Both the position numbers and the translations under genes were made by a program. A DNA stretch of 64,000 nucleotides, taken from Chiloscyllium plagiosum (taxonomy: Eukaryota). Within the stretch, counting starts at the first letter, position 1. The number at the start of each line of letters is the position of its first letter. This document shows, in pieces, positions 4,425 to 61,330 of the stretch. Below the pieces are notes generated by a model. That model was not told the DNA's origin. It saw only the letters and a program-made list of their open reading frames with translations, and did no database searches. Location: the NCBI RefSeq assembly GCF_004010195.1, contig NC_057718.1, positions 55,544,422-55,608,421 of the forward strand, in the 5' to 3' direction.

Positions 4425-5282
4425 TGCAGGAAAACCACACACACAGACCAAGTCCTGAACTACGAAAGCAACCACCCCAACACACAAAGAAGTTGCATCA
4501 AGACAGTGTTCAAAAGGGCCACAACATACTGCAGCACACCAGAACTGCAAAAAGAGGAAGAAGAACACCTCTACAATGTATTCTCCAAAAAACGGATACC
4601 CCCGCAATTTCATCAACAGGTGCCCAAGGAAAAGACAACGGAATGAGGACGTGCCATAACCCAAAGGACTAACCACATTACCATACATCAAGAACATTTC
4701 TGAACTGACAGCCAGACTACTTCGACCACTAGGACTCATAACAGCACATAAAACAACAGCCACCAGGACAACATCTCACCAGGACAAAGGATCCGATACC
4801 CAGCATAAGCAAAACCAACGTAGTGTACAAAATCCCATGCAAGGACTGCACAAAACACTACATAGGACAAACATGAAGACAGCTAACGATCCGTATCCAT
4901 GAACACCAACTAGCCACAAAAGGACACGACCAGCTATCCTTAGTAGCCGCACACACACATGACAAGCAACATGAGTTCGACTGGGACAACACTACTATTA
5001 TAGGACAAGCCAAACAGAGAACAGCCAGGGAATTCCTAGAGGCATGGCACTCATCCACAGATTCTATCAACAAACACATCACCCTGGACCCAATATACCG
5101 GCCACTGCAGCGGACAGCTGGAACTGACAACCGGAAGCGGCAGAGACAAACCACTATAAATGCCAGAGGAAATATCACAGAAGCGCTTCACAGGAGGCTC
5201 CCAAGCACTGAGGATGTCACCTAGACAGGGGACGAAACATCTGCAGCACAAATTCCCAGCTTGGTGAACAGAACCACAACGA
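4425..5282 (+). mobile_element. 5'-truncated PLE (family A): RT thumb, GIY-YIG and pLTR
   Basis: Near-identical to 55670-56532; encodes NVVYKIPCKDCTKHYIGQT; hammerhead motif at 5205-5244. Confidence 0.9.
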
Positions 5283-5741
5283 CATTCTCTCTTTATTAGC
5301 TTTTTAGTTATTTGCTGCTGGTTCCTAATATTTCTACTTTGCTTTTTTTTCTGCTTTGTATGCCTTAGTTTTTGAATGGATGCTCTCCTTAACTATTGTT
5401 CTTAATCATGGTGGTTCATCCTTCTCAACGAGTTCTCCTTTTTGACAAGAGTAAATTTTTGAGTGTTATGAAATGTCTGCTCAACTGTCTGCCACTGTAT
5501 GTTGATTGACATTTCCCCCTTCATCTATTTTTCCAGCACACCTTAGACAACTGTTTGTTCATATTTAATTGAGACCTGAGTTGTTGTTCTTCAAACTGAA
5601 ATTGAAATTCTACCAGGATGTGATCATTGTTCCCTAGAGGATTCTTAACTACAAGAGCTCTGATTAATCCTACCTCAATACACACTACTAGATTTGGAAT
5701 AGCTTGTTCTCAGGTGGGTTAGTCAACATACCTTTCTAAGA

Positions 5742-6665
5742 GGAAAAAGTGAGGACTACAGATGCTGGAGATCAGAGCTGAAAATGTGTTGCTGGAAAAG
5801 CGCAGCAGGTCAGGCAGCATCCAAGGAGCAGTAGAATCGACATTTCAGGCATAAGCCCTTCTTCAGGAATGAGGAAATTGTGTCCAGCAGGCTAAGATAA
5901 AAGGTAGGGAGGATGGACTTGGGGGAGAGGCGTTGGAAATGCGATAGGTGGAAGGAGGTCAAGGTGAGGGTGATAGGCCGGAGTGGGGGTGGGGGNNNNN
6001 NNNNNNNNNNNNNNNNNNNNNNNNNNNNNNNNNNNNNNNNNNNNNNNNNNNNNNNNNNNNNNNNNNNNNNNNNNNNNNNNNNNNNNNNNNNNNNNNNNNN
6101 NNNNNNNNNNNNNNNNNNNNNNNNNNNNNNNNNNNNNNNNNNNNNNNNNNNNNNNNNNNNNNNNNNNNNNNNNNNNNNNNNNNNNNNNNNNNNNNNNNNN
6201 NNNNNNNNNNNNNNNNNNNNNNNNNNNNNNNNNNNNNNNNNNNNNNNNNNNNNNNNNNNNNNNNNNNNNNNNNNNNNNNNNNNNNNNNNNNNNNNNNNNN
6301 NNNNNNNTGCCTGGAGTGGAGGTTGGGTTGGTGGGGGGTGTGGACCTGACGAGGGATTCACGGAGGGAGTGGTCTTTTCGGAACGCTGATAGGGCAGTGG
6401 AGGGAAATATATCCCTGGTGGTGGGGTCCGTTTGGAGATGGCGGAAATGATGGCGATGATACGCTGTATATGGAGGTTGGTGGGGTGGTAGGTGAGGACC
6501 AGTGGGGTTCTGTCCTGGTGGCGGTTGGAGGGGCGGGGCTCAAGGGCGGAGGAGCAGGAAATGGAGGAGATGCGGTAGAGGGCATCGTCGACCACGTCTG
6601 GGGGGAAATTGTGGTCTTTGAAGAAGGAGGCCATCTGGGTTGTACGGTATTGGAACTGGTCCACT
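5742..6665 (-). mobile_element. 5'-truncated PLE (family C) spanning an N gap
   Basis: Minus ORF (SFFKDHNFPPDVVDDAL...TPLVLTYHPTN) is PLE-like; 9-bp duplication tttctaaga at 5733-5741 and 6666-6674; hammerhead motif at about 5835-5870 (-). Confidence 0.85.
5996..6307. other. Assembly gap (312 N)
   Basis: Run of N. Confidence 1.
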
Positions 6666-7651
6666 TTTCTAAGAAGCAATCTTTGGTGTGCTCTACAAAT
6701 TCATTTCCCATGTTACCATTGCCATTCTGATTTGTCTACTTAATACGTAGATTATAATAATCCATGTTAATTGTAGTGCCCTTCTTCCATTTCTCCATTA
6801 GTTCCAAATTTATACTTTATCCTACAATGAGGCACCTCTTCGTGGGGTTATAGATGATCCCAGTCATGACTTCTTTCCCTTGCTCTTCCCTATTTCCAAC
6901 CAAATTGATTCCACGTCCCCATTTATCACACCTACTTCCCACCACACTGACAACCATCCTTTATTAATAAAGCTACCCCACTTCCTTTTCCTTTTTGTCA
7001 ATTTTTCTGGGCCATCGAATATTCTTGAATATTGAGTTCTCAGTCTTGGTCACTATGCAACCATGTTCCTGTAATAGCTATCAAGTCACATGCATTTATT
7101 TCTTCTTGTGTCATCAGCTCATCTAACTTATTAAAAATTCTGCAAGCATTCAGATGAAGACTCTTGAACATTTTACAATTATTATTTATTCTGGTTCCTG
7201 TTTCTATCGTACTCTTCCTATTTCACTTCAATTATTGTTTACCTCTCCACCAGCCTGCTGTTGTTTCATTTGATTTTTTTAAACTTCCCTTAAATTGAAC
7301 CATCCTACCTCCTCCACTCTCAAACACGCTTTCACATGCACGCTACCACACGTGCACACACACACACAAATTATTTTTTAAAGCCTTATCTACAATCCAC
7401 ATTAGACAAATTGTCAGGGCACCAATCCCAGCATGTTTCAAATGAAGCATTTCCAATGGAATAGCTCTCTCTCTTCTAGGTGCTAGTGTCCCATGAATTG
7501 GAACCCATTTCTTCCACACCAATCTTTAGGCCATGCATTTACCTCTCCAATTTTATTTGCCCTTCACCAATTTGCATGTGATATAGATTATTATCTTTGT
7601 GGTTCTGTTTTTTTAAAAAAAAAGACTCATGCTGCTTACAATCCCTCATCA

Positions 7652-8960
7652 GAACATAGAACATAGAAAAATACAGCGCAGTACAGGCCTTTTGAGCCTC
7701 GATGTTACGCCGATCCAAGCCCACCTAACCTACACTAGCCCACTATCCTCCATATGCCTATCCAATGCCCGTTTAAATGCCCATAAAGAGGGAGAGTCCA
7801 CCACTGCTACTGGCAGGGCATTCCATGAACTCACGACTCGCTGAGTAAAGAATCTACCCCTAACATCTGTCCTATACCTACCACCCCTTAATTTAAAGCT
7901 ATGCCCCCTCGTAATAGCTGACTCCATACGTGGAAAAAGGNNNNNNNNNNNNNNNNNNNNNNNNNNNNNNNNNNNNNNNNNNNNNNNNNNNNNNNNNNNN
8001 NNNNNNNNNNNNNNNNNNNNNNNNNNNNNNNNNNNNNNNNNNNNNNNNNNNNNNNNNNNNNNNNNNNNNNNNNNNNNNNNNNNNNNNNNNNNNNNNNNNN
8101 NNNNNNNNNNNNNNNNNNNNNNNNNNNNNNNNNNNNNNNNNNNNNNNNNNNNNNNNNNNNNNNNNNNNNNNNNNNNNNNNNNNNNNNNNNNNNNNNNNNN
8201 NNNNNNNNNNNNNNNNNNNNNNNNNNNNNNNNNNNNNNNNNNNNNNNNNNNNNNNNNNNNNNNNNNNNNNNNNNNNNNNNNNNNNNNNNNNNNNNNNNNN
8301 NNNNNNNNNNNNNNNNNNNNNNNNNNNNNNNNNNNNNNNNNNNNNNNNNNNNNNNNNNNNNNNNNNNNNNNNNNNNNNNNNNNNNNNNNNNNNNNNNNNN
8401 NNNNNNNNNNNNNNNNNNNNNNNNNNNNNNNNNNNNNNNNNNNNNNNNNNNNNNNNNNNNNNNNNNNNNNNNNNNNNNNNNNNNNNNNNNNNNNNNNNNN
8501 NNNNNNNNNNNNNNNNNNNNNNNNNNNNNNNNNNNNNNNNNNNNNNNNNNNNNNNNNNNNNNNNNNNNNNNNNNNNNNNNNNNNNNNNNNNNNNNNNNNN
8601 NNNNNNNNNNNNNNNNNNNNNNNNNNNNNNNNNNNNNNNNNNNNNNNNNNNNNNNNNNNNNNNNNNNNNNNNNNNNNNNNNNNNNNNNNNNNNNNNNNNN
8701 NNNNNNNNNNNNNNNNNNNNNNNNNNNNNNNNNNNNNNNNNNNNNNNNNNNNNNNNACCACATTTGTAGCCTCCAATCTTCTGGCACTACTCCTGTAGAC
8801 AACGAGGACATAAAAATCAAGGCCAATGGCTCTGCAATCTTCTCCCCTGCTTCCCAGAGAATCCTAGGATAAATGCCATCAGGCCCAGGGGACTTATCTA
8901 TTTTCACCCTTTCCAGAATTTCCCATACCTCAAAGCTGTCCATTCTAATTAATTGTCACT
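7652..8960 (-). mobile_element. Young CR1 LINE fragment spanning a gap
   Basis: KSPGPDGIYPRIL...VPEDWR and FFTQRVVSSWNALP; (agaacat)n tail at 7650-7670. Confidence 0.9.
7941..8756. other. Assembly gap (816 N)
   Basis: Run of N. Confidence 1.
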
Positions 8961-9099
8961 CAATATTCACCTTTTTCCTAGTCCTGCATAAAACATTGGT
9001 ACCAATTTGGACCCATGACAACTTGATCCTTCCCTTCAGCTCTAAATTCCTCTCCAACCAGAAGAGAATTTTACCAGGCTTCTTTAAATGTACTTTTTT

Positions 9100-9337
9100 G
9101 CTCTTCTTTAAAAGGGTAAAAGATGATGACTTTTCATGTCCACTGGCTTTTCTGCTGATGAAGTTGAATCCCTGGGTTGTTTGCAAGTTAGAACACAATG
9201 CAGGACAATGTAAAGGAGCCTTTTATAAGTACAGGAACTGTTTGTATGTTGGATCTTTAAAATTACATCCACGTATGGGATTGTGTTTGCAAGTACAGCA
9301 TTCGTAAGTTGAACATTCATAAATAGGGGACCCCCTG
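9100..9337. mobile_element. Tigger-like DNA transposon end
   Basis: Minus strand reads TA-CAGGGGGTCCCCTATTTATGAATGTTCAACTTACGAA, similar to the terminus at 55186; other end not found. Confidence 0.5.
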
Positions 9338-13964: not shown

Positions 13965-14236
13965 CACCCTTGCACAGACTGAGTGCCACCAACTGGATTC
14001 CTTCCTCCCATCAACCAACCAGGTCATACACTCTACTTGTGTTCACCTATCTCCACCTCAACACCCTGCTCCCCCACCCCCTTTATTTGCAGCTCCCCTT
14101 ACTCCCATCCCCAGTCCTGAAGAAGGTTATACCTGAAACGTTGACTTCTCCACCTGCTGATTCTGCCTGGCTTCTGTGTTCTTCCAGCCTCCTGCTTGTC
14201 TACCTTGGATTCCAACATCAGCAGTTTTTTTGTCTG
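13965..14236 (+). mobile_element. PLE 3' end/pLTR fragment
   Basis: C-rich PLE 3' region followed by a hammerhead motif and a pLTR tail. Confidence 0.7.
14113..14146 (+). ncRNA. Minimal type I hammerhead ribozyme motif
   Basis: AGTC-CTGAAGA-AGGT tat ACCT-GAAA-CGTT^-GACT; stem I AGTC/GACT, stem II AGGT/ACCT, palindromic ACGT. Confidence 0.75.
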
Positions 14237-15289
14237 TTAGAAAGATGCTGACAACTATGAGTGGTACAGGATGAAAAAATCGTAGCAGTTCCCTGGATAT
14301 CTAGCCCAGACCTGCATTTTCTGGCTATTGTGGTTACAAATGAACTATACATTAACAAAGTGGCATCTTCTTCTATTGGTACAAACTGCTGGTTCATGAC
14401 AAGGCATCTGCCATGCAGATGCAATCAATTGGACTCTGAACCCACAGAAAACCAGCAATGCCATTAAAATCTGATGCCCTTAACTGGCCGATTTCCCCCA
14501 CCCCCCAAGTTAAAAGGTAAAGAGATTGATTGATGCACTCTTGCAAAGAAAGCATCATACCCTTCCAGATATACTTACAAGTTAGTTGATGCCTTTGAAA
14601 TGCGACAAAGATCCCCAGAAACACATGGGATTGAGGGTAAATGTCATCTCTAGGGCTACTAGGGTTGAAACCCAATGGCCACAGGTTCTTGTCCAGCAGA
14701 TGACATAGAGATGAGACGTTGGCTCAGGAGTTCCTGAGGCAGCTTCTACCTTGGATGCCATTACCTTAGAGAGAGGATCTATGGACTTTAGTATAGCTAT
14801 TTTGCATGGAGAGAACTCACCCACTCCACATCAGATTTCACCTACTTCTCTGTCTTATATGTGAGGTTAAACAAGCTACAGTGTCATATCTTGTAGTTCT
14901 TGTGATGGTCTCCATTATCAAATGTGAAGATGAATATGAGATATGAGCAAGTTAAGTATATTCAAAACTGAGACTGATTTTTAATCAGTAAGGGAATCAA
15001 GGGTTATGTGGAAAGGGAGGGGAAGTGAAGTTTGAGGATTATCATATCAGCTATTATCCAATTGAATGGTGGTCCAGACTCAATGGGCTGGAATGACCCA
15101 CTTCAGCTCCTAAGTCTTATGAGGCATGAATGAGCTTCTCTTGCTCCATTGACTTTGTAGACCTGTGACATTGGGAGATCTCAATCTGGTTACAATGTGC
15201 TTTTGCTTGGTACTTCATGAGATTGGGTTGTAACTGAATGGTGTTGAGTTACTCTTTTCAAAGCAATTTGAAATTAAGTTAATATGAAG

Positions 15290-15480
15290 GCAAATGTGAG
15301 AACTGCAGATGCTGGAGATCAGAGTCAAGATTAGAGTGGTGCTGGAAAAGCACAGCAGGTCAGGCAGCATTCGAGGATTAGGAAAATCGATGTTTCGGGC
15401 AGGAGCCCTTCATCAGATTCCTGCTCCCCGGATGCTGCCTGACCTGCTGTGCTTTTCCAGCACCACTCTAATCTTGACTC
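15290..15480. mobile_element. Fold-back PLE pLTR insertion
   Basis: Perfect 49-bp inverted arms at 15322-15370 and 15432-15480; minus-strand hammerhead core at about 15385-15419. Confidence 0.85.
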
Positions 15481-17738: not shown

Positions 17739-18079
17739 TCTAATCTTATAACGAGAAACCAATCAAATGGATTAAATCTAACGATTCATTTAGAGAATCT
17801 CTGCTAGAAATTAATAAAAAAACTAATCCTTTGTCTCAATTCTGTGGGTATTCATGGGAGTATGCCTTAATCATGGTTTTGAGGGTCTGATTGTACCGCT
17901 CCAAATCTCCGTGTTTGCAGATGATACACAGTTCATTTCATTTTTTTTCCTCAAAACTGGTAATGACTTTCTGGAAAACCTTTCACATGAAGTTAGAATC
18001 CTGGTCAGGCTGTACCTCAATTAATAGTCCATAATGAGTTATAAATAAAACTGTTAACTCTTCCATTACTACTCTAGCT

Positions 18080-18332
18080 CAAAGTTTGGGAGAAGATTTG
18101 TAGCTCGGGTGCTCGTTGTTGTGGTTCTGTTCGCCGACCTGGACCCAATATACCGGCCACTACAGCGGACAGCTGGAACTGACAACCGGAAGCGGCAGAG
18201 ACAGGCCACTATAAATGCCGGAGGAAACATCATAGAAGCGCTTCACAGGAGGCTCCCAAGCACTGAGGATGTCACCTAGACAGGGGACGAAACGTTTGCA
18301 AGACAAATTCCCAGCTCGGCGAACAGAACACA
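18080..18332 (+). mobile_element. Short PLE family A insertion with inverted 5' pLTR piece
   Basis: 12-bp duplication actactctagct at 18068-18079 and 18333-18344; 18080-18142 is an inverted pLTR end. Confidence 0.88.
18260..18299 (+). ncRNA. Minimal type I hammerhead ribozyme motif (family A)
   Basis: GCA-CTGAGGA-T-GTCACCT agac AGGGGAC-GAAA-CGTT^-TGC. Confidence 0.7.
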
Positions 18333-19258
18333 ACTACTCTAGCTATAATTATTCTTAAAGAAAGAGCTTTGGGTTTCAAGTTGTCAACTCTGAGGATATA
18401 TTGATATCCTGCTTTCGTTTTTGGTAATGGTTCTGTAGAATCCATTAACACTCTACTAAATAATTCTGCAAAAACTGGTTTAGGTATCAAAGGTGCTAGT
18501 GTGATTACATGTTGATATTTTCCAAAATAACATGTTTTACAGTACTGCACTATATCTTTATGAAGTATTGGCCATGTAAAATACCTGTTTATTGATGCTT
18601 GTGTTTTCCATATGCCTGTAAGCCCTCCCACAGAAACTTTATGCACTACTTGCACTATCTCCTTATGATATCGGGGCAGAATGACTATTTGATGAACCAT
18701 CCATTCTTAGTCTGCAGGTCTGAGAGGATGTCTCCACTTCCTCATAACTATTTTCAATATGATAGCATTCGGAAACCCTTCACCCTCAGCTTCACTGTGA
18801 ACTGTCTAATAACTTGCATATTTCTGTTTGCTTAGCCTAATCAGTGAAGACATGCCAAACACCTCTATTGCACTATTCTGTCTCTTAAATATGAGTTTCA
18901 TAACATGTTATTAATGTGACTTTTCCTGAACTTCGTTAAGGCAAAGCTCTGGCCAAGATACATTCAGGAAAAATATCCTGAACTATTTCTGCAACTGTTC
19001 CATCTATCTAGCCTCAAATGGACTTCATATGATTATAGATGAAGCTATGTCTTGCACTCTTGCTAAATCGTTCCCCAGAACTAAATCAACTCCATCCTTC
19101 GGTAATCTCTGCATATTAACGACTATTAGACCAGACAAGTCGCACTCCAGTTGGACCTTGCACAATAGAACTGGGATATACTCTCCACCTGTTCCACCTA
19201 CCAAATAGTTTGAGTTTCAATGAACTCTCTGGAGGAAAACTCAATTCTTCTCCAGCAA

Positions 19259-19468
19259 AGTTAAAAATCACACAATACCAGGTTATAGTCCATCAGATTT
19301 AATTGGAAGCACAAGCTTTCGGAGCACTGCTCCTTCATCAGGTGGTTGTGGATGAAGGAACAGCGCTTTGAAAGCTAGTCCTTCCAATTAAACCTGTTGG
19401 ACTATAACCTGGTGTTGTGTGATTTTTAATTTTGTACATCACAGTCCAACACAAGCATCTCCAAATCA
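19259..19468. mobile_element. Fold-back PLE pLTR insertion (family B)
   Basis: Inverted arms; duplication cttctc(c/t)agcaa at 19247-19258 and 19469-19480. Confidence 0.88.
19310..19344 (-). ncRNA. Minimal type I hammerhead ribozyme motif (family B)
   Basis: Minus strand CAC-CTGATGA-A-GGAGC agt GCTCC-GAAA-GCTT^-GTG. Confidence 0.78.
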
Positions 19469-19589
19469 CTTCTCTAGCAAGAGAGATTGAGTAACCCCTG
19501 TATCTCTCAGAATTAGTTATGGGCTTGTTTTCTTCTTTTGAAGAAAATGGGTCATCTTCCCTTTAGATTAAAAACCTTCTAATTTCTGT

Positions 19590-19810
19590 TAAAAATCACA
19601 CAACACCAGGTTATAATCCAACAGGTTTAATTGGAAGCACTAGCTTTCAGAGCGCTGCTCCTTCATCAGGTCGGTTGTGTCCACAACCACCTGATGCAGG
19701 AGCAGCGCTCCGAAAGTTAGTGCTTCCAATTAACCCTGTTGGACTATAACCTGGTGTTGTGTGATTTTTAACTTTGTACACCCCAGTCCAACACCAGCAT
19801 CTCCAAATTT
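19590..19810. mobile_element. Fold-back PLE pLTR insertion (family B) with two opposed hammerhead motifs
   Basis: About 90-bp arms centred near 19680; duplication taatttctgt at 19580-19589 and 19811-19820; cores at 19638-19672 (-) and 19688-19722 (+, mutated to CTGATGC). Confidence 0.88.
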
Positions 19811-20969: not shown

Positions 20970-22920
20970 CTATTTCAAGAGTAGTCATCTCTGGATTACT
21001 CGTGATGCCACATGATAGTGTGAGTAGGAATAGGAAGACAGGGCAGATGAATGTGTGGTGGAGGAGCTGATGCGGGGGCAGGGATTTAGATTTTTGGATC
21101 ATTAGGATCTCGTCTGGGGCAGAAGTAACCTATACAAGAGGGATGGGTTGCATTTGAACTGGATGGGGGAATCGGTATCCTGGCAGGGAGATATACTGAA
21201 GCTATTTGGAAAAGCTTAAACTGGTCTGGCAGGGGAGCGGGTGGGACCCTAAGCAGTTGTGAGACCAGAGAGAAGGTTGAGGCTGGTATAGAAGTTAAAG
21301 AGAGGACGTTAAGTGGACAAGGTAGGTAGGGGCATGGCAGGGACTGAGGGAAGACAGAATCATTTATTTCAATGCAAAAGGCCTGACAGGTAAGGCAGAT
21401 GAACTGAGGGCATGGATGAGAACATGGGAATGGGATAGCTTAGCTATTACAGAAAGATGGCTGGAAGGATGGGATTGGCAGCTCAATGTTTTGGGACACA
21501 GATGCTGTTGGATGGCTAGAAGAGGGGCAAGAGAGAAGGTGGAGTGACATTTTGATTAGGGAAATCATGACAGCATATTTAGAGAAACTTTCCTGAAGGA
21601 TCATCCAGTGAAGCTATATGGGTGGAACTGAGAAATAAGAAGAGGGTGATTATTTTAATGGGATTGTACATAAGACCCCAGCAGTTAATGGAAAATTGAG
21701 GAGCAAATATGTGGGAGATCACAGATAGCTGTAAGAATAATAGAGTTGTAATAGTAGGGGATTTTAATTTGCCAAACATAGACTGGGACTGCCGTTGTGT
21801 TAAGGTCTTGGATTGTAAGGAATTTGTTCAGTGTTTCAGGAAAACATTCTCAATCAATAAGTAGATGGCCATACTAGAGAAGAGGCAAATCCTGACCACC
21901 TCTTGGGAAATAAGGCAGGGCAAGTGATTGAAGCGTTAATGGGGGAGCACTTTGGGACCAGTAACCATAATTCTATACCACCTGATTAAGAGGCAGCGCC
22001 TCGAAAGCTAGTACTTCCAAATAAACCTGTTGGACTATAACCTGGTGTTGTGTGATTTTTAACTTTGTCCACGCCAGTCCAACACCGGCACCTCCAAATC
22101 CAGTTTTAAAATAGTTTTAGAAAAAAGATTGACCTCGTCCACAAGTTAAAATTCAAACTGAGGTGAGGCCAGTTTTGAACAGGAACTTTCAAAAGTTGAT
22201 TGGGAGAGGCTGTTTGCAGTGGCAAGTGGGAGGCTTTCAAAAGCAAGGGAAGAGTTCAGGGCCAGCATGTTGCTGTTGGTGTGAAGGGCAAGGCTGGCAG
22301 GGCACACTAGATAACTCGAGATATTGAGGCACTGATCAAGAAAAAAGAGACATATATCAGGTATCAACAGCCGGGATCGAGTGAATCCTTTTAGTCGTGT
22401 TGGGGGGGGTGAAGACGTACACATAAGAAGGGCAAAAGGGTTCATAGCTTTGACAGGTAGGGTAAAGAAGAATCCAAAGAGTTTCTACAAGTATATTAAG
22501 GACAAAAGAGTAATTAGGGAGAGAATAGGCACCCATTGGAGGGATTCTGAGAGACTGGATCTACATGTATTTGGAAAGGTAAGGACTGATTAGGGATAGC
22601 GTGGCTTTGTTGGAAATGGTGTGTTTCAAACTTGAACTTTTGAAGAGGTGATCAAGAAGATAGGTGAAGACACTTTACATGGGCTTTAGCAAGGCCTTTA
22701 GCAAGGCCTTCAACAAGGTTCTGTATGGTAGACTGGTTAAATCATCTGGGATCCAGGGAGAGCTAATGAACTGATACAAAATTGGCTTGAGACCGAGGGT
22801 GGTGGTAAAGGGTTATTGTTCACACTGGAGGCCTGCGACCAGTGATGTGCTGCAAGAATCGGTGCTGGGTCCAATGCTTTTCCTCACTTCTATCAATGAT
22901 TTGGATGAGAATATGGAGAA
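20970..22920 (+). mobile_element. Decayed CR1 LINE (ORF1 esterase, endonuclease, part of RT)
   Basis: YKRDGLHLNW SGNH-type motif at about 21130-21163; VIVGDFNLPNIDW at about 21745-21790; SVLGPMLF...INDLDE. Confidence 0.85.
21978..22100 (+). mobile_element. Family B pLTR fragment starting at a hammerhead motif
   Basis: CAC-CTGATTA-A-GAGGC agc GCCTC-GAAA-GCTA-GTA followed by the family B tail; interrupts the CR1. Confidence 0.8.
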
Positions 22921-25372
22921 CTGGGTGCCACTGAATGCACTGCTTCCGCAACCCTCCCATGCTTATGTTTCAATTGTGACTCCGACCGCCTTTCCAAGGA
23001 ACCTTTTCTTCCACATCAAATATGTTCCATCCACTTGGACACCCCTTCCTGGTCTCTTACCCGCCTCGACCTTTTTATTCTCCAACTGCTGCCAAGACAT
23101 TGACTGCCTCAATCAGTGCACCCGTCTCACCTACTCCAATCTCTCACCCTCGCAAAGTGCAGCCCCCTACTCCCTCCACTCCTTATGCTCCAACCGCAAC
23201 TTCACCATTAAATCAGTGGACAAGGGGGGGGATGCAGTGGTAGTTTGGCAAACTGACCTCTGAATTGCTGATGCCAGATGCCAACTCCGCCCTCCCCCCA
23301 CCCGATTGCCACTGTTTATGTCACTTCCTCCAGTGATGTTGCCAATGATCATATGATTGCCCCCACTTCAAAGACAGTTTCCACTCCCAACTCCTGCTCT
23401 GCACCAGGGTCCAGCCCTGCTGAGTTTTTACCATCCCCCCCCCCAGACCTTCCCCTCACTGATGATGAGCAATCAATCGTCATCAGAGGTCTCTCCTTCG
23501 CCCCAGTACAGTCCCAGGTCAGTGAATTCCATACGTGTTGCGACATTGAACTTTTCTTCCTCTGCTTCCTGCTTCCATGCTGATGTTTTCAATTGTGCCT
23601 CTGACCGCCTCTCCAAAGACCCTTTTCTCCCACATCAAACATACTCCATCCACTTGGACACTCCTTCCTGGTCACTTACCCACCTCGACCTTTTTATTCT
23701 CCAACTGTCGCCAAGACATTGACTGCCTCAATCTGTCCACCCCTCTCACCCACTCCAATCTCTCACCCTTGCAAAGTGCAGCCCTCTACTCCCTCCAATC
23801 CCTATACTCCAACCCTAACTTCACCATTAAAGCAGCGGACAAGGGGGGGATGCAGTAATAGTTTGGCAAACTGACCTCTGCATTGCTGATGCCAGGCGCC
23901 AACTCACAGATACCTCCTCCTACCACCCCCTCGAACACAACCTCACCACCCATCACCAAACCATCATCTCCCAGAACATCCACAACCTCATCACCTCAGG
24001 AGATTTCCCATCCACAGCCTCGCACTTCATGGTTTTGCAACCCTGCACTGCCCAGTTCTACCTCTTACCTAAAATCCACAAACCCGGTCGACCTATTGAC
24101 TCACCTGCTCCTGCCCCACCGAGCATATCTCTTCATATCTCAACACTGTTCTGTCCGCCTTGGTTTAGGAACTCCCAACATGCAGTTGGGACACTACCCA
24201 CGCCCACCACCTCCACCATGACTTTCTTTTCCCTGGTCCCCAAAGCTTCATCTTTACCATCTGCCATGGCAAAGCTTCTGAGCCCTCTATTTCTTCCTCT
24301 CCCTTCCACCCAACCAGTATCCTTCCATTGACACACTCATTCAATTGGCAGAACTGGTCCTCACCCTCAACAACTTCTCCTTTGAATCCTCCCACATCCT
24401 TCAGACCAAAGGGTATGCTATGGGCACCTGCATGGGCCCTGACTATGTTTTTCTCTTCGTAGGAATGTGGAACAGTCCATCTTACACTGGCACCATACCC
24501 TATCTCTTCCTCCACTATGTTGATGACTGTTTTGATGCCACCTTGAGCTTCCAACTGGAACAGTTCATCAACTTCACAAATACGGTCCACCCTGACCTTA
24601 AGTTTACATGTACCATCTCGGAAACCTCCCTCTGCTTCCTGGACCTCATCATCTCCATCTCTGGTGACTGGCAGCATGGACACCTATTTCAAACCTACCA
24701 ACTCCCACAATTACCCGGACTACGTCTCCCCACCCCCTACACCCACACCCTAAAAATGTGATCCCTTACTACCAATTCCTCCACCTCTGCTGTATTTGCT
24801 CCCAGGAGGATCACTTCTACTCCAGGACATCCCAGGTGACCTCCTATTTCAAGAACCATAATTTCCCTTCCCATGTGATCAATAATGCCCTCCAGTGCAT
24901 CTCCTCCACTTTCCGCATCTCTGCCCTTGAACCGCAAGGATAGAATTCCCTGGTCCTCACCTTCCACCCCAATAATATCTGGATACAACACATTATCTTC
25001 CACCACCTACAGTCAAACTCCACGACCAGATATATATATGTATATATATATATCCTTCCACACCTCCATCTGCGTTCTGTAGATACCATTCCCTCAGTGA
25101 CTTCCTCATTAGCTCCATGCCACCCCCTCCCAACAAAAGCATCCTCCACTCCCAGCACCTTCCCTCACCATGCAGGAGGTGTAAAACCTGCGTCCATATC
25201 TCCTCTCCTCACCTCTGTCCAAGGCCCCAAAGGATCTTTTCATATCCGGCAGAGATTTTCCTGCACATTCATTCACCTGCTCTACTGTGTCTGTTGCTCT
25301 CGATGTCGTCTCCTCTACATCAGGGAGACAGAACGCCGACTTGTGAACCATTTCAGGGAACCTCTCTGGGAC
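22920..25372 (+). mobile_element. Decayed PLE (RT and GIY-YIG) with an internal duplication
   Basis: [41 protein letters not shown] and YCVCCSRCRLLYIRET motifs with frameshifts. Confidence 0.9.
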
Positions 25373-26122
25373 ACCTTGTGTCTTTCACTGTGTCTCATAC
25401 CTGCACACACACACATCATGGGTGCTGGGGAAAAAATAAGCACTACCGCAGTTAGGCGGTAGTGTGGGGGCTATAAAAAGAAAAAAGAAAAAGATAAAAA
25501 AAACGAAAAAAAATAAACAGGATATTTCACGCAGCATTGCCCTTTGATGTCCAAGTTGACACCGTCCTGTCCCCCTTAGTCCAAGTTGACACCGTCCTGT
25601 CCCCCTTAGTCCAAGTTGACACCGTCCTGTCCCCCTTAGTCCAAGCCAACCTCATAGTCCCACAACCTCGCACCGCCCGCTTCTACCTCCTGCCCAAAAT
25701 CCACAAACCTGACTGCCCCGGCCGACCCATTGTCTCCGCCTGCTCCTGCCCCACCGAACTCATCTCCGCATACCTTGACACCGTCCTGTCCCCCTTCACT
25801 AGAAAAAGAAATAAACAGGAGTGTACTCTACTTTGATTAAAAAACTCTATTTTGATTTAATCCCTGCCCTCCCCTTCACTGTTTGATCACACAGCAAAGC
25901 CCTTTTTTGTGAAGGGCACTGCTTGTCACTCGGGTGTTTTCCTATCTTCCTGGTGGTGGAAATTGAATAAAGATTCGTGCACCTTGTGTCTCTCACTGTG
26001 TCTCACACCTACACACACGCACCATGGGTGCTGGGGAAAAATAAGCACTACCGCAGTTAGGCGGTAGTGTGGGGGTTAAAAAAAACAAAAGAAAGGAAAA
26101 AAAAGGAAAAAATAAATAAACA
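25371..26122 (+). repeat. Two direct copies of a hairpin plus A-rich tail unit (about 25371-25522 and 25980-26124) around a scrambled PLE piece
   Basis: caccttgtgtct...cactaccgcagttaggcggtagtgtggggg-A-rich-aaataaacagga occurs twice. Confidence 0.8.
25549..25645 (+). repeat. Perfect tandem repeat: 3 x 30 bp plus 7 bp (gtccaagttgacaccgtcctgtccccctta)
   Basis: Directly visible; the unit derives from PLE RT coding sequence (DTVLSPLVQ). Confidence 0.95.
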
Positions 26123-35485: not shown

Positions 35486-35605
35486 AATATTATGTTTGCG
35501 AAACTTGTTATTTTTCATCGTGCTTTAGTAAGTTTATAAAACCTACATCAAATGTTAGCCCAGTGAAGCACAATGAAAAATAACAAGTTTCGCAAACATA
35601 ATATT
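35486..35605. repeat. Inverted repeat: 40-bp arms (39/40 match) with a 40-bp spacer
   Basis: aatattatgtttgcgaaacttgttatttttcatcgtgctt versus aagcacaatgaaaaataacaagtttcgcaaacataatatt. Confidence 0.92.
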
Positions 35606-36660: not shown

Positions 36661-36750
36661 AAAGACTATTAATATTAACATTTGTAAACCGTCCCATTAC
36701 AGTCAAAGGATAGCAATCACCAATAAACATTGTAATTAATTCCTTCACTG

Positions 36751-36851
36751 TTCTGAGGAAGGGTCTCCAGACCTGAATCATTAACTTTGATTTCTCTTCA
36801 CACATGCTGCCAGACCTGCTGAGCTATTCCCGCAACTTCTGTTTTTGTTTA
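36751..36851 (+). mobile_element. 101-bp pLTR insertion starting at a decayed hammerhead
   Basis: 18-bp duplication taattaattccttcactg at 36733-36750 and 36852-36869; CTGAGGA-A-GGGTC tcca GACCT-GAAT. Confidence 0.82.
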
Positions 36852-39100: not shown

Positions 39101-40885
39101 GACCCCAGATTCTCTGACTTGTTAAGGACAAATGCTGAAGGCTACCGAATTAAGATGTAGGGTGGAATTAAATATTACCTCCTACCCTCACTTACCCCAC
39201 CCCTTTAAGCCAACTTCCCCTACTCCCCACCTCCCTCACAGGAGTCACCCTGACTTGTCCCAGAGATCTTGCAGTCCTGCTTCACTCAGTTGTATTCCAG
39301 AGCTCCAATGACTATCTTCACCCTTGGGTCTTCTACCCGTGGCTATAGTTTGTGGTGCTATTGCTCTGACTTTGAAATTTTGCAGTCAATTCTCCTGCAG
39401 GAGCTGGGACCTCCAACAGCAGTCAACAGGCTGTCGGTTGGCACTTAACCAACTGGAGCCCCATCGGAAATATCAACAATAAGTTTAGCTCATTTTCTCC
39501 AAGAAGCAGTCTTGCTGACCTTTCCTGAGAGATCTTTACCATCTCTCTGTGTATCTGTGAGCATTATATGCCCAGGCATTTAACAAAAGTACTGAAGACA
39601 CCCTTTGTTGTACTTACCACCTCTCAATTTGATTTTGCATCTAGTCAGCATTATTAAATGTAGCATAAAAATAAATACAAAATAGTTACATATTGAGAGC
39701 TGAATTTAATTAATGACACCAGGAACAGGAAACGTGGGGGGCAGGATTAATTAATTATATGTGAGCTGAAACTTTGAAATTATGATAATGGGTGACAGTG
39801 ATAAGTCGGGCTTCATTCTGAACTGTAGCAAGTTTCTCATTGTAATCTATTTGCATTTCATGAATGTTAATTACCTTTAAAAGCTTTGAAATAAAGTCCT
39901 ACCTTCACAACAGTGATGTGTGAGTCCAGCATGGCTCTGCTTCACATTGGCTTGATGGTAGCATTCACTCAGTCAATTTTATTCAGATTGACTAAGGTGA
40001 ATGGTTGTTTTGACTAAACAAGGAAGGAGAATGGGAGAATTGCAGCATGAATGGAAGGTTCAGGAAAGGCACAGATGAGCTAGGTGTGAGAGGGAGTTTG
40101 ACATTTGGGCAGTGATGGACTGGAACAGGGCTTTTTGAGATGACATTGGATGGGGCCAGTGCACTGAAGTATTTACTGGGAATGGCTTAATATCTTGGGA
40201 GTGATCAGAATTAGGGTTGGAGGAGAGAGATGCAGCCTGTGAAGATAAATGGAACAAGAGGCTTAAAGGGTGGGATTAGCATAATCCAAAGTTGAGTCCT
40301 GTGGTCACATCCAGGATGCTAGCTGACTAAGGGTAAGTTTGTGTTCATCCAGAGGAGTCTGATTCACTGGAATGTGGTCAGGTCAGGTCTGAGGTTGGGA
40401 TGTTCAGAGGTCTTACAGGGAATACCATTGGAGACTCTAGGAATAATGTAGAGTGGTCTTTGATTAGAAGGGGAATTTTAACAATGGTGGGGTAGGCCAG
40501 GAGGAGCAAGAGCATGTCCAGTTCCATGACGATTATGTTCAGAGTGAAGGTGAGAGGTTCAAATGTTACAAGTAGAAAGTGCACAGTGATATTGTGAGGG
40601 TCGAGATGAAAAGGGACAAAGTTGAGGGTCATGAGAGAGGGATTGAATGTCATGGTTTACAATTTCTTAGTGCCACTTATATACTGTTACTGGCTATGTC
40701 CAAAACCAACTCATAGCTGCTTAAAGTAGAGGTCAAGGCAGAAGGAAGCCAGTATGGGATAGTTTGCGTTTTGAGTGTGGAGAATGGAAGGAGTAGTAAA
40801 TTCTAGAGCTCAAGAGGTCTATGCAGGAAAATGGTAGACACATGGGTTCTCATATTATTGTCTTCTTTTATACACAGTTCCTCGG

Positions 40886-41052
40886 AGAAAGTGAGATCTG
40901 CAGATGCTGGAGATCAGAGTCGAAAAATGTGGCGCTGGAAAAGCACAGCATGTCAGGCCACATTCCTGATGAAGGGCTTACGCATAAAACATGATTCCCC
41001 TGCTCCTCGGATGCTGCCTGACCTGTTGTGCTTTTCAGCACCACTTTTCAAC
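40886..41052. mobile_element. Fold-back family C pLTR insertion
   Basis: Inverted arms gctggaaaagcacagc / gttgtgcttttcagc; decayed core attc-CTGATGA-agggc at about 40962. Confidence 0.75.
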
Positions 41053-51635: not shown

Positions 51636-51992
<357 letters not shown>

Positions 51993-54799: not shown

Positions 54800-55186
54800 C
54801 TCTATAACAAAATCCCGGTTTTGTGGAAGTTCGACCCCACCCCTTCATGCTGCTTCCATTATTCCAACCATTTAAAAAAAAACAAGAATTCACAAGCTGT
54901 TTACTTTATTGGCTTGGAACAGTTTGCTTGCCACCTCCATCTCAACTTCTCTTCATAATAAAACCAGGACAAAATACACTTCTTAAAGCCCTTATATCAT
55001 CACATCCATTCTTGAGTACATTTGTAAATCAATCATATGCAAATCGGAACACAATATAATGCAAACTAAAATATCAGTTTGTAAGTATGAGTAAATGTCT
55101 GTTCTTTAAAATTAACATTAATGTTGAATCTCTTTCATAAGTGCAAGCGTTTGTAAGTCGGACGTTCATAAATCGGGGACTTACTG
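54800..55186. mobile_element. Tigger-like DNA transposon end
   Basis: Terminus gtaagtcggacgttcataaatcggggacttactg, similar to 9300-9337; other boundary uncertain. Confidence 0.5.
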
Positions 55187-55574
55187 TCAAAGTGCAACCT
55201 TTGACTCAGACACCTTATTGAAGTGTAGGGCCTTGAAATGTAGCTGTGCCATACTAAAAGATCTTCTTAGCCCCAGGTATGATAGACAAGATGTTCACTA
55301 TAGCCAGTATTAACTGCTCATTACTAATTCTCCTAGAAATAGTGGTAGTGAATTATCTTCTTGAATCGCTAAGTTCCTTGAGGTTTTGAGACACCCACAG
55401 TTCTACTAAAAATGGAGTTTCAGAATTTTGAGTTGATAAAGTGTGGCAATGGAAAAAGCTTTTTCCAGCTCCACACTTTATCGACTCTGACTTGTCCAAC
55501 ATCTGTAGTCCTCACTATCTCCAAGTTTAAAATTTTGAGCCAATAACAATGAAGATAATGGTGATATCACTCCT

Positions 55575-56532
55575 CTAGAATTCACTAGAGAGGAAGAAAA
55601 GGACAACAAACTCCCATTCCTAGATGTGATGGTACAGAGAACACCAAATGGAGAATTCACCACAAAGGTATACAGGAAAGCCACACACACAAACCAAGTG
55701 CTAAACTACAAAAACAACCATCCCAACACACACAAAAGAAGTTGCATCAAGACACTGTTCAAAAGGGCCACAACACACTGCAGTACACCAGAACTGCAAA
55801 AAGAGGAAGAAGAACACCTATACAATGTATTCACCAAAAACGGATACCCCCGCAATTTCATCAACAGATGCCCAAGGGAAAGACAACAGAATGACGTCAT
55901 GCCACAACTCAAAGGACTAGCCACAGTACCATGCATCAAAAACATTTCTGAACTGACAGCCAGACTACTGCGACCACTAGGACTCATAACAGCACACAAA
56001 CCAACAGCCACTCTCAGACAACAACTCACCAGGACGAAGGACCCGATACCCAGCATAAGCAAAACCAATGTAGTGTACAAAATCCCATGCAAGGACTGCA
56101 CAAAACACTACATAGGACAAACAGGAAGACAGCTAACGATCCGCATCCATGAACACCAACTAGCCACAAAACGACATGACCAGCTATCCTTAGTAGCAAC
56201 ACACTCAGATGACAAGCAACATGAATTCGACTGGGACAACACTACTATTATAGGACAAGCCAAACAGAGAACAGCCAGGGAATTCCTAGAGGCATGGCAC
56301 TCATTCACAGATTCAATCAATAAGCACATCGACCTGGACCCAATATACTGGCCACTGCAGCGGACAGCTGGAACTAACAACCAGAAGCGGCAGATACAAA
56401 TCAATATAAATGCTGGAGGAAACATCACAGAAGCGCTTCACAGGAGGCTCCCAAGCAATGAGGATGTCACCTAGACAGGGGACGAAACGTCTGCAACACA
56501 AATTCCCAGCTCGGCGAACAGAACCACAACAA
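55575..56532 (+). mobile_element. 5'-truncated PLE family A with an open RT-thumb/GIY-YIG frame (ORF 55626..56474)
   Basis: LPFLDV, KVYRKATHT, NVVYKIPCKDCTKHYIGQTGRQLTIRIHEH; hammerhead motif at 56455-56494 with C3>A. Confidence 0.93.
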
Positions 56533-57844
56533 GATGGACATTGCTTTGCTCTTTCAGCTGCAAAATTGATGTTCATGTTACCACACATGTTTCTGAACTC
56601 ATTATTGACAATAGAAGGGCATTTGCCAGCTGACTATTTTTGACTCAAACATTGTAAATTTTCTTCTGGAGAGAAGAAGTTCAAAATGGATTCATTTTCT
56701 GCTAACAATTCATTCCTTGGTTGATAAAAATCCCCTTTATCTATTTTAAGAATATTGGTCAGATTTTTTCATGTTCAAGATGTGATAATTTGAAATATTT
56801 ATTTGGTTTGTACTTGAAATAATTTTAATCTTTCATCTTTTCTTGATTCAATTCTAAATTAATTTAATGTAGTTCCCTTTGAATGGTATCAATATCTTCT
56901 TGCTTTGGATTTCCACTATTTTGTCTAACACTTCCCCTTCGATTTTGCTGGACTTGTAAAGACTCACCTGACTTTTTAAAATTGTCAGATGTGACTCTGA
57001 TTCAGAAGTTACGCACCCATTTCTGAGTCACTGTTTTTGCTGATAGTGGAGCCTCCCGATGGCTCAATCACTTTTTCTGAGGTTGCTTTCCACATGATTC
57101 CTGAGCCTGTATTCCAGCACTTACTTATGGGCACAATTTCAGCTCTTGTGCAGACAATTAGATTCACTAAGCTGTAATTGCCCTTCACTTTTCTGAAACC
57201 CTAATTTCCAAGCTGCACAGAGCTGTAATTGGTTTGCAGGGTGATTTCTGAGCCCTAGCACTTCCTAACAATGTAATCAGCAATCTTTTGTTGCTGTATC
57301 AGCCCTCAATCACCCAGGACTTTTTTGAGTTCTAACTGTGCAAAATAAGCAAATGACATCACTTTCCTGCTTGGTGCCTCTTTCTCTGTGTCTCTCCTAG
57401 AGGCCTCCTCTATCACAGGAATCACTTTTTGTGTGGTGCCATGCTGGTGCTGTGATTTTCTTGCTGCAACATCCATGTGGTTGCCCTCTTGTCCAAAATG
57501 GCTGACTCTTCAGCTTTGGAGAGAAAGCTAGAACAATTGCATGCATTGGCTGAGAGGCTGCAATGCTCTGTGCATGGTCAGAAACATTCAACCTGCCATG
57601 AAATGGAGTCCTTAGTTTCCACCCATGAGTAAGGTATATCAGGTTGATAATGGTGTTCGGTCCTAGGATGTTGCCTTGAAAAGTGAGATTTTGAGCATTT
57701 AAGTTTTTCTGAAAAATCAAAATAAATTGATGACTGAGTTCATGAATTATTATTTCAAGCAAGCATTTGATAATTATTTAGTGTAACTTATGTTACTGGC
57801 AATCCAGAGGTCTTGAGTAATGATTTGAAAATATGATTCCAAGT

Positions 57845-58217
57845 CCAGGGAGTCCAAAACTAAAGGTCATTTAAGGTGAGAGTGGAAAGATTTAAAAGGC
57901 ACCTAAGTGGCAACTGTTTCACCCAGTGGGTGAGTGTGTATGGAATGAGCTACCAGAGGAAGTGATGGAGGCTGGTGGGTTGGGATATCTAGCCGGCATG
58001 GACAAGTTGGACACAAAGGCACTGTTTCCATGCTTTCCATTTCTATGACTCTATGACTCTAATTACAGCATTTAACAGGCATCTAGATGGGTACATGATT
58101 AGGAAGAATTTAGAGGGATATGGGTCAAATGCTGGCGAATGGGACATTTAGACTGTCTGGTCGGCATGGATGAGCTGGACCGAAGGATCTGTTTCTGTGC
58201 TATACTCCTCTATGACT
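57845..58217 (+). mobile_element. Rearranged double CR1/HER1 tail
   Basis: Tail ctatgactct at about 58050 and again at about 58215. Confidence 0.75.
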
Positions 58218-58759
58218 AATTAAATAAATTTGTTAGCATTTCCAAAGAGATCGATAAGCTTATAAAAACAGTTTCGTACTTCTTCTGTTAGCTGACTGTC
58301 AAAATTTCATACTTTAAACTCTTTGCTGTAAGAAATTGTTTAAAAAAATCATTGAGTAATCATAAATAGCAAACAGAGTAGGAATATGTGAGTCATTTTT
58401 TGGTTTGCAGGCTTTGCTTAAGGGGTACGACAACAATTGATGCTTGACCCCAGCTATTCATAGTCCATAACAATGACTTGGATATGGGGATTGAATGTAA
58501 TATTTACAAGTTTGCAGAGGTGGATATGAGCATTGTGAGGAAGACACATGTTTCAATGAAATTCTGAGAAGTTAAATAAGTTGGCACTATCCATTTGGTA
58601 GGAAAAATGGTGAGAAACTGAAGACTGTTGAACTTCAAAGTGACTGGGTGTCCTTGTTCATCAGTCTTTGAAATTTCACGTGGAAGTATAGCAAGCAATT
58701 AAGAATCCAAATATTATGATGGCCTTTTTACCAAAAACATTTCCATGTAGAAGTAAAGA

Positions 58760-60475
58760 TATGGAACCACAGGAAATGGATGAGATACTAAATGAGTATT
58801 CCGCGTCAGTGGACTGTGGAGAAGGATATGGAAGCTAGATAACATGGGGAAATTAACAAGTGATATCTTGAAACATGTCCATATTACAGGAAAGATTCTG
58901 AACATCTTAAAATAATAATGGTGGCTAAATTTTACGACCTGACCAGATTTATCCCAAAACTTTGTGGGAAGCTCGGGAAGAGATTCCTGGGCTCCTTGCT
59001 GAGGTATTTGTATCATTGATAGCCATAGGTGAAATATTGGAAGACTGGAGGTTGGCTAATGTGGTGTCATTATTTAAGAAAGGTGATAAGGAAAAGTCCG
59101 GGAACTATAGGTTGATAAGCCTGACGTCAGTGGTGAGTGAGTTGTTGGAGAGGATTCTGAGGGACAGAATTTACATGCATTTAGAAAGTGACTGATTAGG
59201 GAGAGTCAACATGGCTTTGTGTGTGGGAAATAGTGTCTCACTAACTTGATTGAGTTTTTTGAAGAAATGACAAAGAAGATTGATGAAGGCAGAGCAGTAG
59301 ATGCTGTTTGCATGAACTTCAGCAAGATGTTCGACAAGGTTCCACATAGTCAACAGTTAGTAAGGTTAGATCACATGGAATGCAGGATGGGTTAGCCAAC
59401 TGGATATAAAATTGGCTTGAAGGTAGGAGACAGAGGGTGGTGATGAAGGATTGTTTTTCCTGACTGGAGCAGTGTGACCCGGTGGTATGCTGCAAACACT
59501 AATACTGGGTCCGCTACTTTACATGATTTACTTAAATGATTTGGATGTGAATAAAGGAGGTATGTTTAGTAAGTTTGCAGATGACCCCAGAATAGGTGAT
59601 ATAGTGGATAGTGAAAAACATTGCCTCAGAGTACAATGGCACCTTCATCAGATGGATCGATGGGCCAAGGAGTGGCAGATAGAGTTTAATTAAGACAAAT
59701 GTGAGGTGTGTTTTGGTAAGGTTAATTGGGGCAGGACCAATACACTTAATGGTAGGGTCTTGGGGAATTTTGCTGAGCAAAGGAACCTAGGGGTGCAGGT
59801 ACATAGTTCCTTGAAAGTGGAGTCATAGGTAGTCAAGGTGGTGAAGAAGGCATTTGGCACACTTGCCTTCATTGGTCAGTGCATTGAGTATATGAGTTGG
59901 GATGTCATATTGCGGCTGTACAGCACATTGGTTAGGTCACTTTTAGAATACCATGTACAATTCTGTCTCCCTGCTACAAGAAAGATGTTAAACTTGAAAG
60001 GATTAAAAAAAGATTTACAAGGATGTTGCCAGGATTGGAAGGTTTGAGCTATAGGGAGAGGTTGAATAGACTGGAGTTATTTTTTCCCTGGAGTGTTGGA
60101 GTCTGAAGAGTGACCTTTATAGAGGTTTATAAAATCATGAGGGGTATGGATAGGGTGAAAAGCCAAGTTCTTTTTCCCAGGGTAGGGGAGTTTAAACCTG
60201 TGCCCTCCATTTTTGAGGTGAGAGGAGAAAAAATTAAAAAGGACCTGAGGGACAACTTTCTTACACAGAGGGTGGTGTATGTATGGAGGATATGGTGGAG
60301 ACTGGTACAGTTACAACATTTAAAAGGCATCTGGATGGGTACATGAATAGAAACGGTTTAGAAGGATGTGGGTCAAAATCTGGCAATTTGGACTAATCAA
60401 TTTAGGAAGTCTGGTCGGCTTGGATGAGTTGGACCGAAGAGTGTGTTTCTCTGCGGTATGACTCTTTGACTCTAT
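58760..60475 (+). mobile_element. CR1/HER1 LINE (RT to tail) nested in an older CR1 (about 58300-58740 and 60476-61030)
   Basis: WRLANVVSLFKKG, YRLISLTSVV, LGPLLYMIYLNDL, KFADD; frameshifted. Confidence 0.9.
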
Positions 60476-61292
60476 GTCTTATTGCAATTATATAAATCCT
60501 GAGGCCGTATCTGGAGTAAGGTGTGCAGTTTTGGTCTCCTTATTTAAGAAAATTATATTTGCCATAGAGGATTCAACAAAGTAATTCCTGATTTCTGAGG
60601 CATTGACCGATGAAGAAAGATTAAATAGATTTCATTAAATATTAATTAAATTAGCCTATATTCCCTGGGGTTTAAAGAATGAAAGATGATCTCATTCAAA
60701 GTGAATGTGGAAGGACAGTTCACCTGACTGGAAACTGGGAAGTTTGGGGGAGGTGTTCTAGTGCCTGGGAACATAGTCACAAAATGAAGAAGCTATTTGT
60801 GACTGACAGCAGGATGAATTTATTCACTCAGAGAATGATGTATTTTTAGAGTTCTGTGCTTCTGACGGAAGAGCAATTATTTGGTATATTCAGAATTCAG
60901 TTTGATGGAATTCTAAATGTTAAGAAGTTCAGAGATATAAGAATGGGGCAGGAAAATACAATAGCATCAAAGTGAAAGATCAACCATGATCTAATTAAAT
61001 GACAGCTCGATGGGCTGAATAGTCTACTTTGTTTTTCTGTTTATACTATATTCTTTTACTAGGCAACTAATGTTTTAACTATAGAAAGTGACATCCCCCT
61101 TGTGTACCTACCATCATCTCAGTCTCCAGAGAATTGTAGACCTATTAGCAACTTGTTCAGTGTAATCCATAACTTCTAATCTGATCTAGTATTTGCATTT
61201 TGCCAAATAGTAATATTGAGTCAAGTAGCTAGATGCTTTCCTTGGCTTTTGAAAAATTGTTAAATCCAACAAAGCAGGGAAGAAGCTCCAAT

Positions 61293-61330
61293 GATTCCTG
61301 AAGAAGGGCATGTGCCCGAAACGTCGAATC
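61293..61330 (+). ncRNA. Minimal type I hammerhead ribozyme motif (family C)
   Basis: GATTC-CTGAAGA-A-GGGC atgt GCCC-GAAA-CGTC^-GAATC; 5-bp stem I and GUC cleavage triplet; within an 88-bp insert flanked by ccaatgattc (61288-61297, 61386-61395). Confidence 0.8.

Follow-up and report, generated by a model that had tools for sequence, protein, structure and literature searches.

The 64,000-nucleotide stretch of Chiloscyllium plagiosum contig NC_057718.1 (assembly GCF_004010195.1; positions 55,544,422–55,608,421, forward strand; hereafter the window), part of a 3.56-Gb genome, carries minimal hammerhead ribozyme motifs in the pseudo-long terminal repeats (pLTRs) of at least five families of Penelope-like elements (PLEs). 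Most lie in decayed solo or head-to-head insertions, and most copies of families B to E are likely reverse transcripts of the front end of an uncut, capped RNA; we give this reading as a whole a probability of roughly three in four. The motif class, the PLE pLTR minimal hammerhead, is already in print (Cervera and De la Pena 2014; PMC4209133), and the value of the material is that of a natural experiment on what PLE hammerheads do, not of a new ribozyme: the ends of the insertions show which form of the RNA was copied, namely uncut, probably capped RNA, and seldom cut linear RNA.

Both strands of the window were scanned with a structural hammerhead descriptor (helix I, CTGAnGA, optional base, helix II, GAA, A N N' T H, helix I). 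The scan returned 10 CTGAnGA..GAA cores with a helix II of at least 3 bp, 5 of them with an intact A-N-N'-T-H and 4 with a helix I of at least 3 bp in addition; 300 dinucleotide shuffles gave means of 2.19, 0.017, and 0, and maxima of 8, 1, and 0, respectively. All 13 places listed in a preliminary description of this DNA were found in the window sequence to be a motif or a decayed form of one, and its remark that several were decayed was borne out. Four sites are fully intact (14117+, 18263+, 19341−, 61298+), one (19669−) has an intact core and a weak helix I, and eight are broken, three of them through CpG transitions in ACGT; core and helix III are both intact in 5 of the 13, which derive from five families and are not independent. 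An arm with a truncated core at 19351+ is a further motif, missing from the earlier list. A scan of the window against Rfam gave 10 matches up to E = 5, with hammerhead models absent among them.

The window holds three sites of family A (5208, 18263, 56458), four of family B (19341, 19669, 19691, 21982), four of family C (5866, 15416, 40966, 61298), and one each of families D (14117) and E (36753). Outside the window there is also a sixth variant, F. Several PLE families with pLTR hammerheads, as had been proposed, are thus present. The core CUGANGA..GAAA..UH is intact together with helix III in all ten family representatives, as is an extra nucleotide (A or T) between A9 and G10.1; the 10.1–11.1 pair is G-C in eight and G-T in two. 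Helix III is a loopless palindrome, as first described, reading ACGT in families A, C, D, E, and F and AGCT in family B.

The helices differ between families and still pair. Pairs were counted through structural anchors in the ten representatives, and the 3' strands were permuted among families in 20,000 trials. Paired cells amounted to 28 of 30 in helix I and 39 of 40 in helix II (permuted means 15.3 and 25.7), and 0 of 20,000 permutations reached the observed values, a figure that is inflated by the relatedness of the families and is not a true probability. Changes on both strands are seen at helix I position 3 (G-C, C-G, T-A) and in the middle of helix III (C-G or G-C); the two misses, a U-U pair, occur in the commonest C subfamilies. 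The earlier claim of differing but pairing stems therefore stands, with two of its readings amended: at 14117 the family has GGT/ACC with an extra A (GGGT/ACCC in family copies) in place of AGGT/ACCT, and the G of GATTC in stem I at 61293 belongs to a 10-bp target-site duplication, not to the element. At 21990–22002 helix II reads GAGGC/GCCTC, as compared with GGAGC/GCTCC in its family, a double change that keeps the pairing in a copy with a broken core.

A hammerhead in a pLTR downstream of an open reading frame (ORF) of the reverse transcriptase (RT)/GIY-YIG kind was found for families A and C. In family A a 311-amino acid (aa) ORF runs into the hammerhead; Pfam gave no match to it at E 0.01, a sub-piece gave only a weak GIY-YIG match (E 0.014), and the closest named protein is from Chiloscyllium punctatum (76% identity over 31% of the query). 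Among 76 longer relatives of this ORF, most have RT and PF26215, and a few have GIY-YIG as well; one relative (P0003) has both RT and GIY-YIG by Pfam. For family C, stretch L105 holds a 466-aa PLE-like ORF, followed by a gap and then by a family C hammerhead and pLTR; Pfam returned nothing useful for this ORF. Family B has a short C-terminal remnant, GLNRDLGF, ~480 nt upstream, which we take to be a PLE-like motif. Families D, E, and F have a downstream pLTR motif in common with C, at about +45 to +75 from C3 and shared despite the different helices; it is a candidate protein-binding or RT-positioning element. A CX2-5CxxC linker is a feature of Neptune elements only. At ~25.2 kb of the window, CRRCKTC precedes a GIY-YIG remnant in an ORF that resembles the family C fragment, and such a linker is not present in the family A ORF. 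By this linker motif, and not by an RT tree, family A would be a Poseidon and the relatives of family C would be Neptune elements.

Exact cores number at least 107,814 genome-wide (85,040 of family C, 14,028 of B, 7,492 of A, 1,254 of E/F); 494 of family D, which partly overlap those of C, are kept outside this sum. The patterns leave helix I unscored, and reversed-pattern controls returned 0. A dense, multi-family population of hammerhead motifs, as the preliminary description had supposed, is thereby supported. In a sample of 141 unselected stretches, the window among them (1,419,399 bases, or 1.42 Mb), 34 intact motifs were returned by the strict descriptor (control 0), or ~85,000 genome-wide by extrapolation, and 410 pLTR arms (307 C/D/E, 90 B, 13 A; ~290 arms per Mb); given this density of motifs and arms, the window is typical of the genome.

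Evidence for the form of the copied RNA comes from the ends of the copies in this sample, which were located through the sequence downstream of the cut, so that a whole hammerhead was not a prerequisite. In family C (305 of 307 arms, two edge cases dropped) 86 of the 5' ends fall at −5 to −2 from C3 (21.5 per nt), as against two within 2 nt of the cut (0.4 per nt) and 0.2 per nt upstream; 53 arms reach well upstream, and ~50 begin near +36 to +52, many of these being D/E/F copies that diverge from the C references and not truncations. In family B, 9 of 89 ends fall at −9 to −7 and one at the cut, while 26 copies are long; most of the 25 E/F loci, read by eye, begin ~4 nt before the core. Genome-wide, 81 of the first 100 of 2,648 family B matches are junctions at +1, and ~8 of the first 100 of 1,149 matches are junctions at the cut site. 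Run-off at the cut site was rejected as the origin of the stubs on these counts.

The base at the pile-up is A in an initiator-like context, and helix I begins with this A in families C, D, E, and F; TATAAA, CATAA, or TTATCT lies at −29 to −32 in 14 of the 15 long copies scanned. The base before +1 was counted by hand among matches in which it is not the template C. Plain junctions of family B have G there in 25 of 42 cases and inverted ones in 39 of 39 (first 100 of 2,648 matches, 19 long copies excluded); the partner arm could be the template for many of the Gs at inverted junctions. Matches to the TTAT/TCAT copies of family C have G there in 59 of the first 100 of 10,420; the binomial p-value of the excess over 25% is 2e-6 for family B (plain) and 6e-13 for family C. 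In L1 insertions, an extra G is a mark of capped, full-length copies (PMC11702581). The 3' ends lie at two sites 30–40 nt apart in each family; a PLE tail of 30–40 bp marks internal RT starts (PMC11167929).

RNA reads were taken from one single-cell poly(A) sample (run X20; ~2% of reads examined; the organism sampled may be a relative). The family B copy in stretch L048 was matched by 3,270 reads, 1,404 of which continue as poly(A) after L048 position 1557, 1559, or 1560. This site lies 27–30 nt past the uncut cleavage site and 12–15 nt past A(A/T)TAAA; a GU-rich tract follows, and the genome has no A-run there. AATAAA or ATTAAA stands at that place in 71 of the 90 family B arms of the sample. 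Depth is 1,846 and 1,945 on the two sides of the cut, with neither a drop nor a pile of read ends. The 369 reads that extend upstream of the inferred start, with sequence of a sister subfamily, are, because of that extension, the 3' ends of longer RNAs. Poly(A) after an uncut hammerhead gives the family B pLTR a U3-R-U5 layout like that of a long terminal repeat (LTR), and as the poly(A) site precedes both RT starts, a polyadenylated 3' pLTR is without them. The family C copy was matched by 2,676 reads on both strands, 7 of which cross from the tail into the element body; a second run (X21) gave 0 reads on the family B copy. At L048:1505, 91 reads of run X20 have the same foreign sequence upstream (agreement 0.74), as would be expected of a host transcript with its end in a family B stub; family B stubs may supply poly(A) sites to host genes.

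These observations suggest the following route. Transcripts would begin with the first A of helix I in families C, D, E, and F, and 8 nt ahead of the core in family B. RT would start internally at one of the two tail sites of the 5' pLTR, as seen in vitro for an anole PLE (PMC11167929), and run off at the cap, leaving stubs of ~90–130 bp; two such cDNAs, from both ends of the target, would account for the head-to-head pairs. Where a source element has two pLTRs, a double hammerhead would arise between the 5' and 3' copies of the motif in a single transcript, probably aided by protein; cutting would remove cap and tail and could yield a circle, such as was proposed by Cervera and De la Pena (PMC4209133). 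Long copies might arise by circle, strand transfer, or read-through. The fold would be selected for in source elements alone, the inserted copies being inert relics. A stricter form of the model is conceivable, though we think it doubtful: the pLTR would be a true U3-R-U5 with the hammerhead as R and its first helix as initiator, the stubs, in their hundreds of thousands, would be integrated 'strong-stop' cDNAs of uncut RNA, and long copies would come only when the two hammerheads of a transcript, 5' and 3', had paired, cut, and joined it into a circle on which RT could go on from R into the end of the ORF, so that ribozyme activity would set the ratio of long copies to stubs. The order of promoter, ribozyme, poly(A) site, and RT start in family B makes circle and strand-transfer models directly testable.

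Several results weigh against the preferred reading. An exact target-site duplication is found in 14 of 177 copies, and 11 of the 14 join by microhomology, 2 of these 11 with G at −1. Junctions of the TTTT subfamily of family C have ~5 G and 9 A; its start may differ, as its box lies 2 nt further upstream. Family A is without a pile-up (1 of 13 sample arms short), and a probe of positions −18 and −19 only showed no G excess in this family. No full ORF was found linked to families B, D, E, or F. Read starts do not pile up on the family B or family C copy, poly(A) is absent among the loose ends listed for the family C copy, which likewise has no pile of ends, and short cleaved 3' products would be lost from this kind of library, so that cleavage is compatible with the RNA data. 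Nearest-neighbour energies do not favour an intermolecular double hammerhead over two monomers or over the minimum free energy fold of the dimer.

It might be that the dispersed copies form a working ribozyme population, cutting host transcripts as cis or trans dimers and kept by selection; the figure of ~85,000 strictly intact motifs and the family C reads on both strands speak for it, as does the raw comparison in family C, in which the core differs by 2.8% and the downstream sequence by 9.6% (p 6e-21). This gap is due to differences between subfamilies: per position, non-CpG core sites differ by 3.2%, as compared with 3.1% at 12 downstream sites invariant among subfamilies (a value biased low by their overlap with the search anchor), and for the helix III CpG the figure is 25–26%, similar to other CpGs. 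Family B core and downstream sequences differ by 5.2% and 6.8% (p 0.27). Selection on inserted cores was therefore rejected, and core decay is about the background rate; core and helix III are kept in 49 of 151 whole copies of family C and 18 of 43 of family B. Nor is the arrangement that of tandem dimers, an excess of which was likewise rejected: a head-to-head partner lies no more than 400 nt away from 80 of the 180 whole C arms and from 26 of the 55 B arms, whereas same-strand pairs among the 180 C arms number 4 within 600 nt (~13 expected, Poisson) and 73 within 4 kb (~72 expected), and 4 of 55 whole B arms have a same-strand partner within 600 nt. In the predicted fold, a long duplex (−325 kcal/mol) encloses both members of the window's sole same-strand near-intact pair (19341 and 19669). 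Published activity of PLE hammerheads is low or nil without protein, and the predicted energies and duplex burial would fit both this low activity and protein dependence. With background decay, solo or head-to-head layout, and no excess of same-strand pairs, an active population is not supported; the inserted copies are probably not working ribozymes, and their maintenance as such by selection is very improbable.

Two other explanations concern the origin of the stubs. The shared 5' edge might not be a transcription start at all but the product of microhomology with AT-rich targets or of RT drop-off after the hammerhead fold, the G coming from terminal-transferase addition of C. The microhomology to the first letters in the 11 copies noted above, the TTTT subfamily without G excess, and the ATT preference of the anole PLE endonuclease (PMC11167929) accord with this; yet the same ATTC stands 1 nt past the cut in TTAT copies, where ends do not pile up, the first letters are other than ATT in family B (ACAACC), family D (AGTC), and family E (AGTT), and all of these have a TATA-like box ~30 nt upstream. 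We regard this explanation as unlikely. Less probable still is that the stubs are a separate non-autonomous family, like short interspersed elements (SINEs) or retrozymes, made from short masters and possibly via self-cleaved circles. Short copies are extremely numerous, truncated copies that keep the TATA box could serve as sources, and tandem retrozymes are reported from one chondrichthyan (10.64898/2026.07.22.740005); at L096:6101–6480, beside an assembly gap, two direct pLTR tails spaced ~330 nt enclose an internally deleted family C element, a candidate natural tandem or retrozyme-like unit. Against such masters, several loop subfamilies and four families have the same kind of start with heterogeneous flanks, the stubs are without the upstream box, and same-strand pairs are not in excess. 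Reverse transcription of uncut, capped element RNA remains the reading that we prefer.

Table 1. Hammerhead-bearing insertions and associated PLE features in the window. Coordinates are window positions; site, position of the hammerhead site;., both orientations.
Feature	Position	Strand	Details
Family A minimal hammerhead	5205..5244, site 5208	+	Helix III broken by CpG change (ACAT); end of copy ~4486–5280
Family C (TTAT loop) hammerhead	5835..5870, site 5866	−	ATGT; long copy, TTATCT box at −30; PLE ORF fragment upstream 6360–6700 (−); pLTR tail to ~5742
Family D hammerhead	14113..14146, site 14117	+	Intact (AGTC/GACT, ACGT-T)
Family C head-to-head stub pair	15289..15480	−	Hammerhead 15385–15416, ACAT, helix I lost
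Family A hammerhead	18260..18299, site 18263	+	Intact (GCA/TGC, ACGT-T); copy 18136–18329, inverted partner 18079–18143
Family B head-to-head pair	19256..19468	.	Intact hammerhead 19310–19344 (−); truncated-core arm from 19351 (+)
Family B head-to-head pair	19588..19808	.	Near-intact hammerhead 19638–19672 (−); broken hammerhead 19688–19722 (+), site 19691, A9>C, AGTT
Family B solo stub	21977..22100	+	Hammerhead 21979–22013, site 21982, G8>T; AATAAA ~10 nt past cut
Family E solo stub	36750..36850	+	Hammerhead 36750–36785 (site 36753) broken: A15.1>T, helix III lost; 18-bp direct repeat on both flanks (read from printed sequence)
Family C head-to-head stub pair	40884..41052	.	Hammerhead 40962–40997 (+), site 40966, G12 and helix II damaged
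Family A PLE ORF, 3' part	55539..56474	+	311 aa, GIY-YIG region; stop codon inside hammerhead helix II
Family A hammerhead	56455..56494, site 56458	+	C3>A
Family C solo stub	61288..61395	+	Begins at inferred +1 A (61294); intact hammerhead 61294–61330, site 61298; 10-bp target-site duplication

Other features of the window are as follows. A decayed Neptune-like PLE lies at 22775–25830. It contains a direct duplication of 263 nt (22968/23587), and a 30-nt unit repeated three times in tandem at 25549–25645 matches its RT region; a hammerhead was looked for at the end of this element and none was found. An integrase zinc-binding fragment (PF17921) of an LTR-type element at 18272–18706 (−) adjoins the family A head-to-head insertion. 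Fragments of long interspersed element (LINE) RT (PF00078) are present at 2295–3249 and in other places, their 3' ends being dispersed in several copies. A near-perfect AT-rich hairpin with ~40-bp arms at 35490–35601 looks like an inverted repeat of the miniature inverted-repeat transposable element (MITE) type and has a weak Rfam match to MIR6288, under the gathering score; a weak SNORA31 match at 61544–61648 (25 bits, E 2.3) is probably due to chance.

LTR retroelements have the layout U3-R-U5, make minus-strand strong-stop DNA, and are primed by tRNA. Family B resembles them in the order of promoter, start, poly(A) site, and RT start, and in short copies that span cap to RT start; unlike them, it is primed by target DNA and R holds a ribozyme, and a poly(A) site in the repeat is found only in family B. 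The motifs agree with the PLE hammerheads of Cervera and De la Pena (PMC4209133) in core, extra nucleotide between 9 and 10.1, G10.1-C11.1, short helix I, loopless palindromic helix III, and the occurrence of several families per genome, mostly as singles and as opposite-strand pairs; the available text of that paper names no shark and does not describe the position at the transcription start, the cap-type G, or the poly(A) site. Its vertebrate counts (~4,000 in coelacanth, ~9,000 in Xenopus) are ~10 times lower than the total here, the search methods being different. Penelope is listed among whale shark repeats (PMC8455134), and a search of titles and abstract openings, mostly open-access, found no literature on shark PLE hammerheads or on PLE stubs with a cap G. 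Non-LTR retrozymes (10.64898/2026.07.22.740005) share the type I hammerhead and the pLTR origin; they form tandem arrays, unlike the solo or inverted copies here, which are without an excess of tandem pairs.

Endonuclease-positive (EN+) PLE insertions (Arkhipova 2013, PMC3846280; Craig 2021, PMC8557442) likewise have head-to-head arms that meet in palindromic junctions, a tail, target duplications, and TATA and initiator elements in the pLTR. Arkhipova 2013 (PMC3846280) proposes that solo pLTRs come from recombination or deletion, and palindromes from self-priming on an antisense template; the present data fit run-off cDNA from capped sense RNA instead. The function of PLE hammerheads has been called unclear (PMC8557442), and their cleavage is dispensable for insertion in vitro (PMC11167929). 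The anole Poseidon PAc of the latter study (Frangieh et al. 2024) is similar, with a pLTR hammerhead, two internal RT starts, uncut RNA as the main template, and no RNA-seq ends at the cut. The family A ORF differs from that of PAc in ending inside the hammerhead; and what was shown in vitro for PAc is here indicated in vivo by both the genomic 5' ends and the RNA reads.

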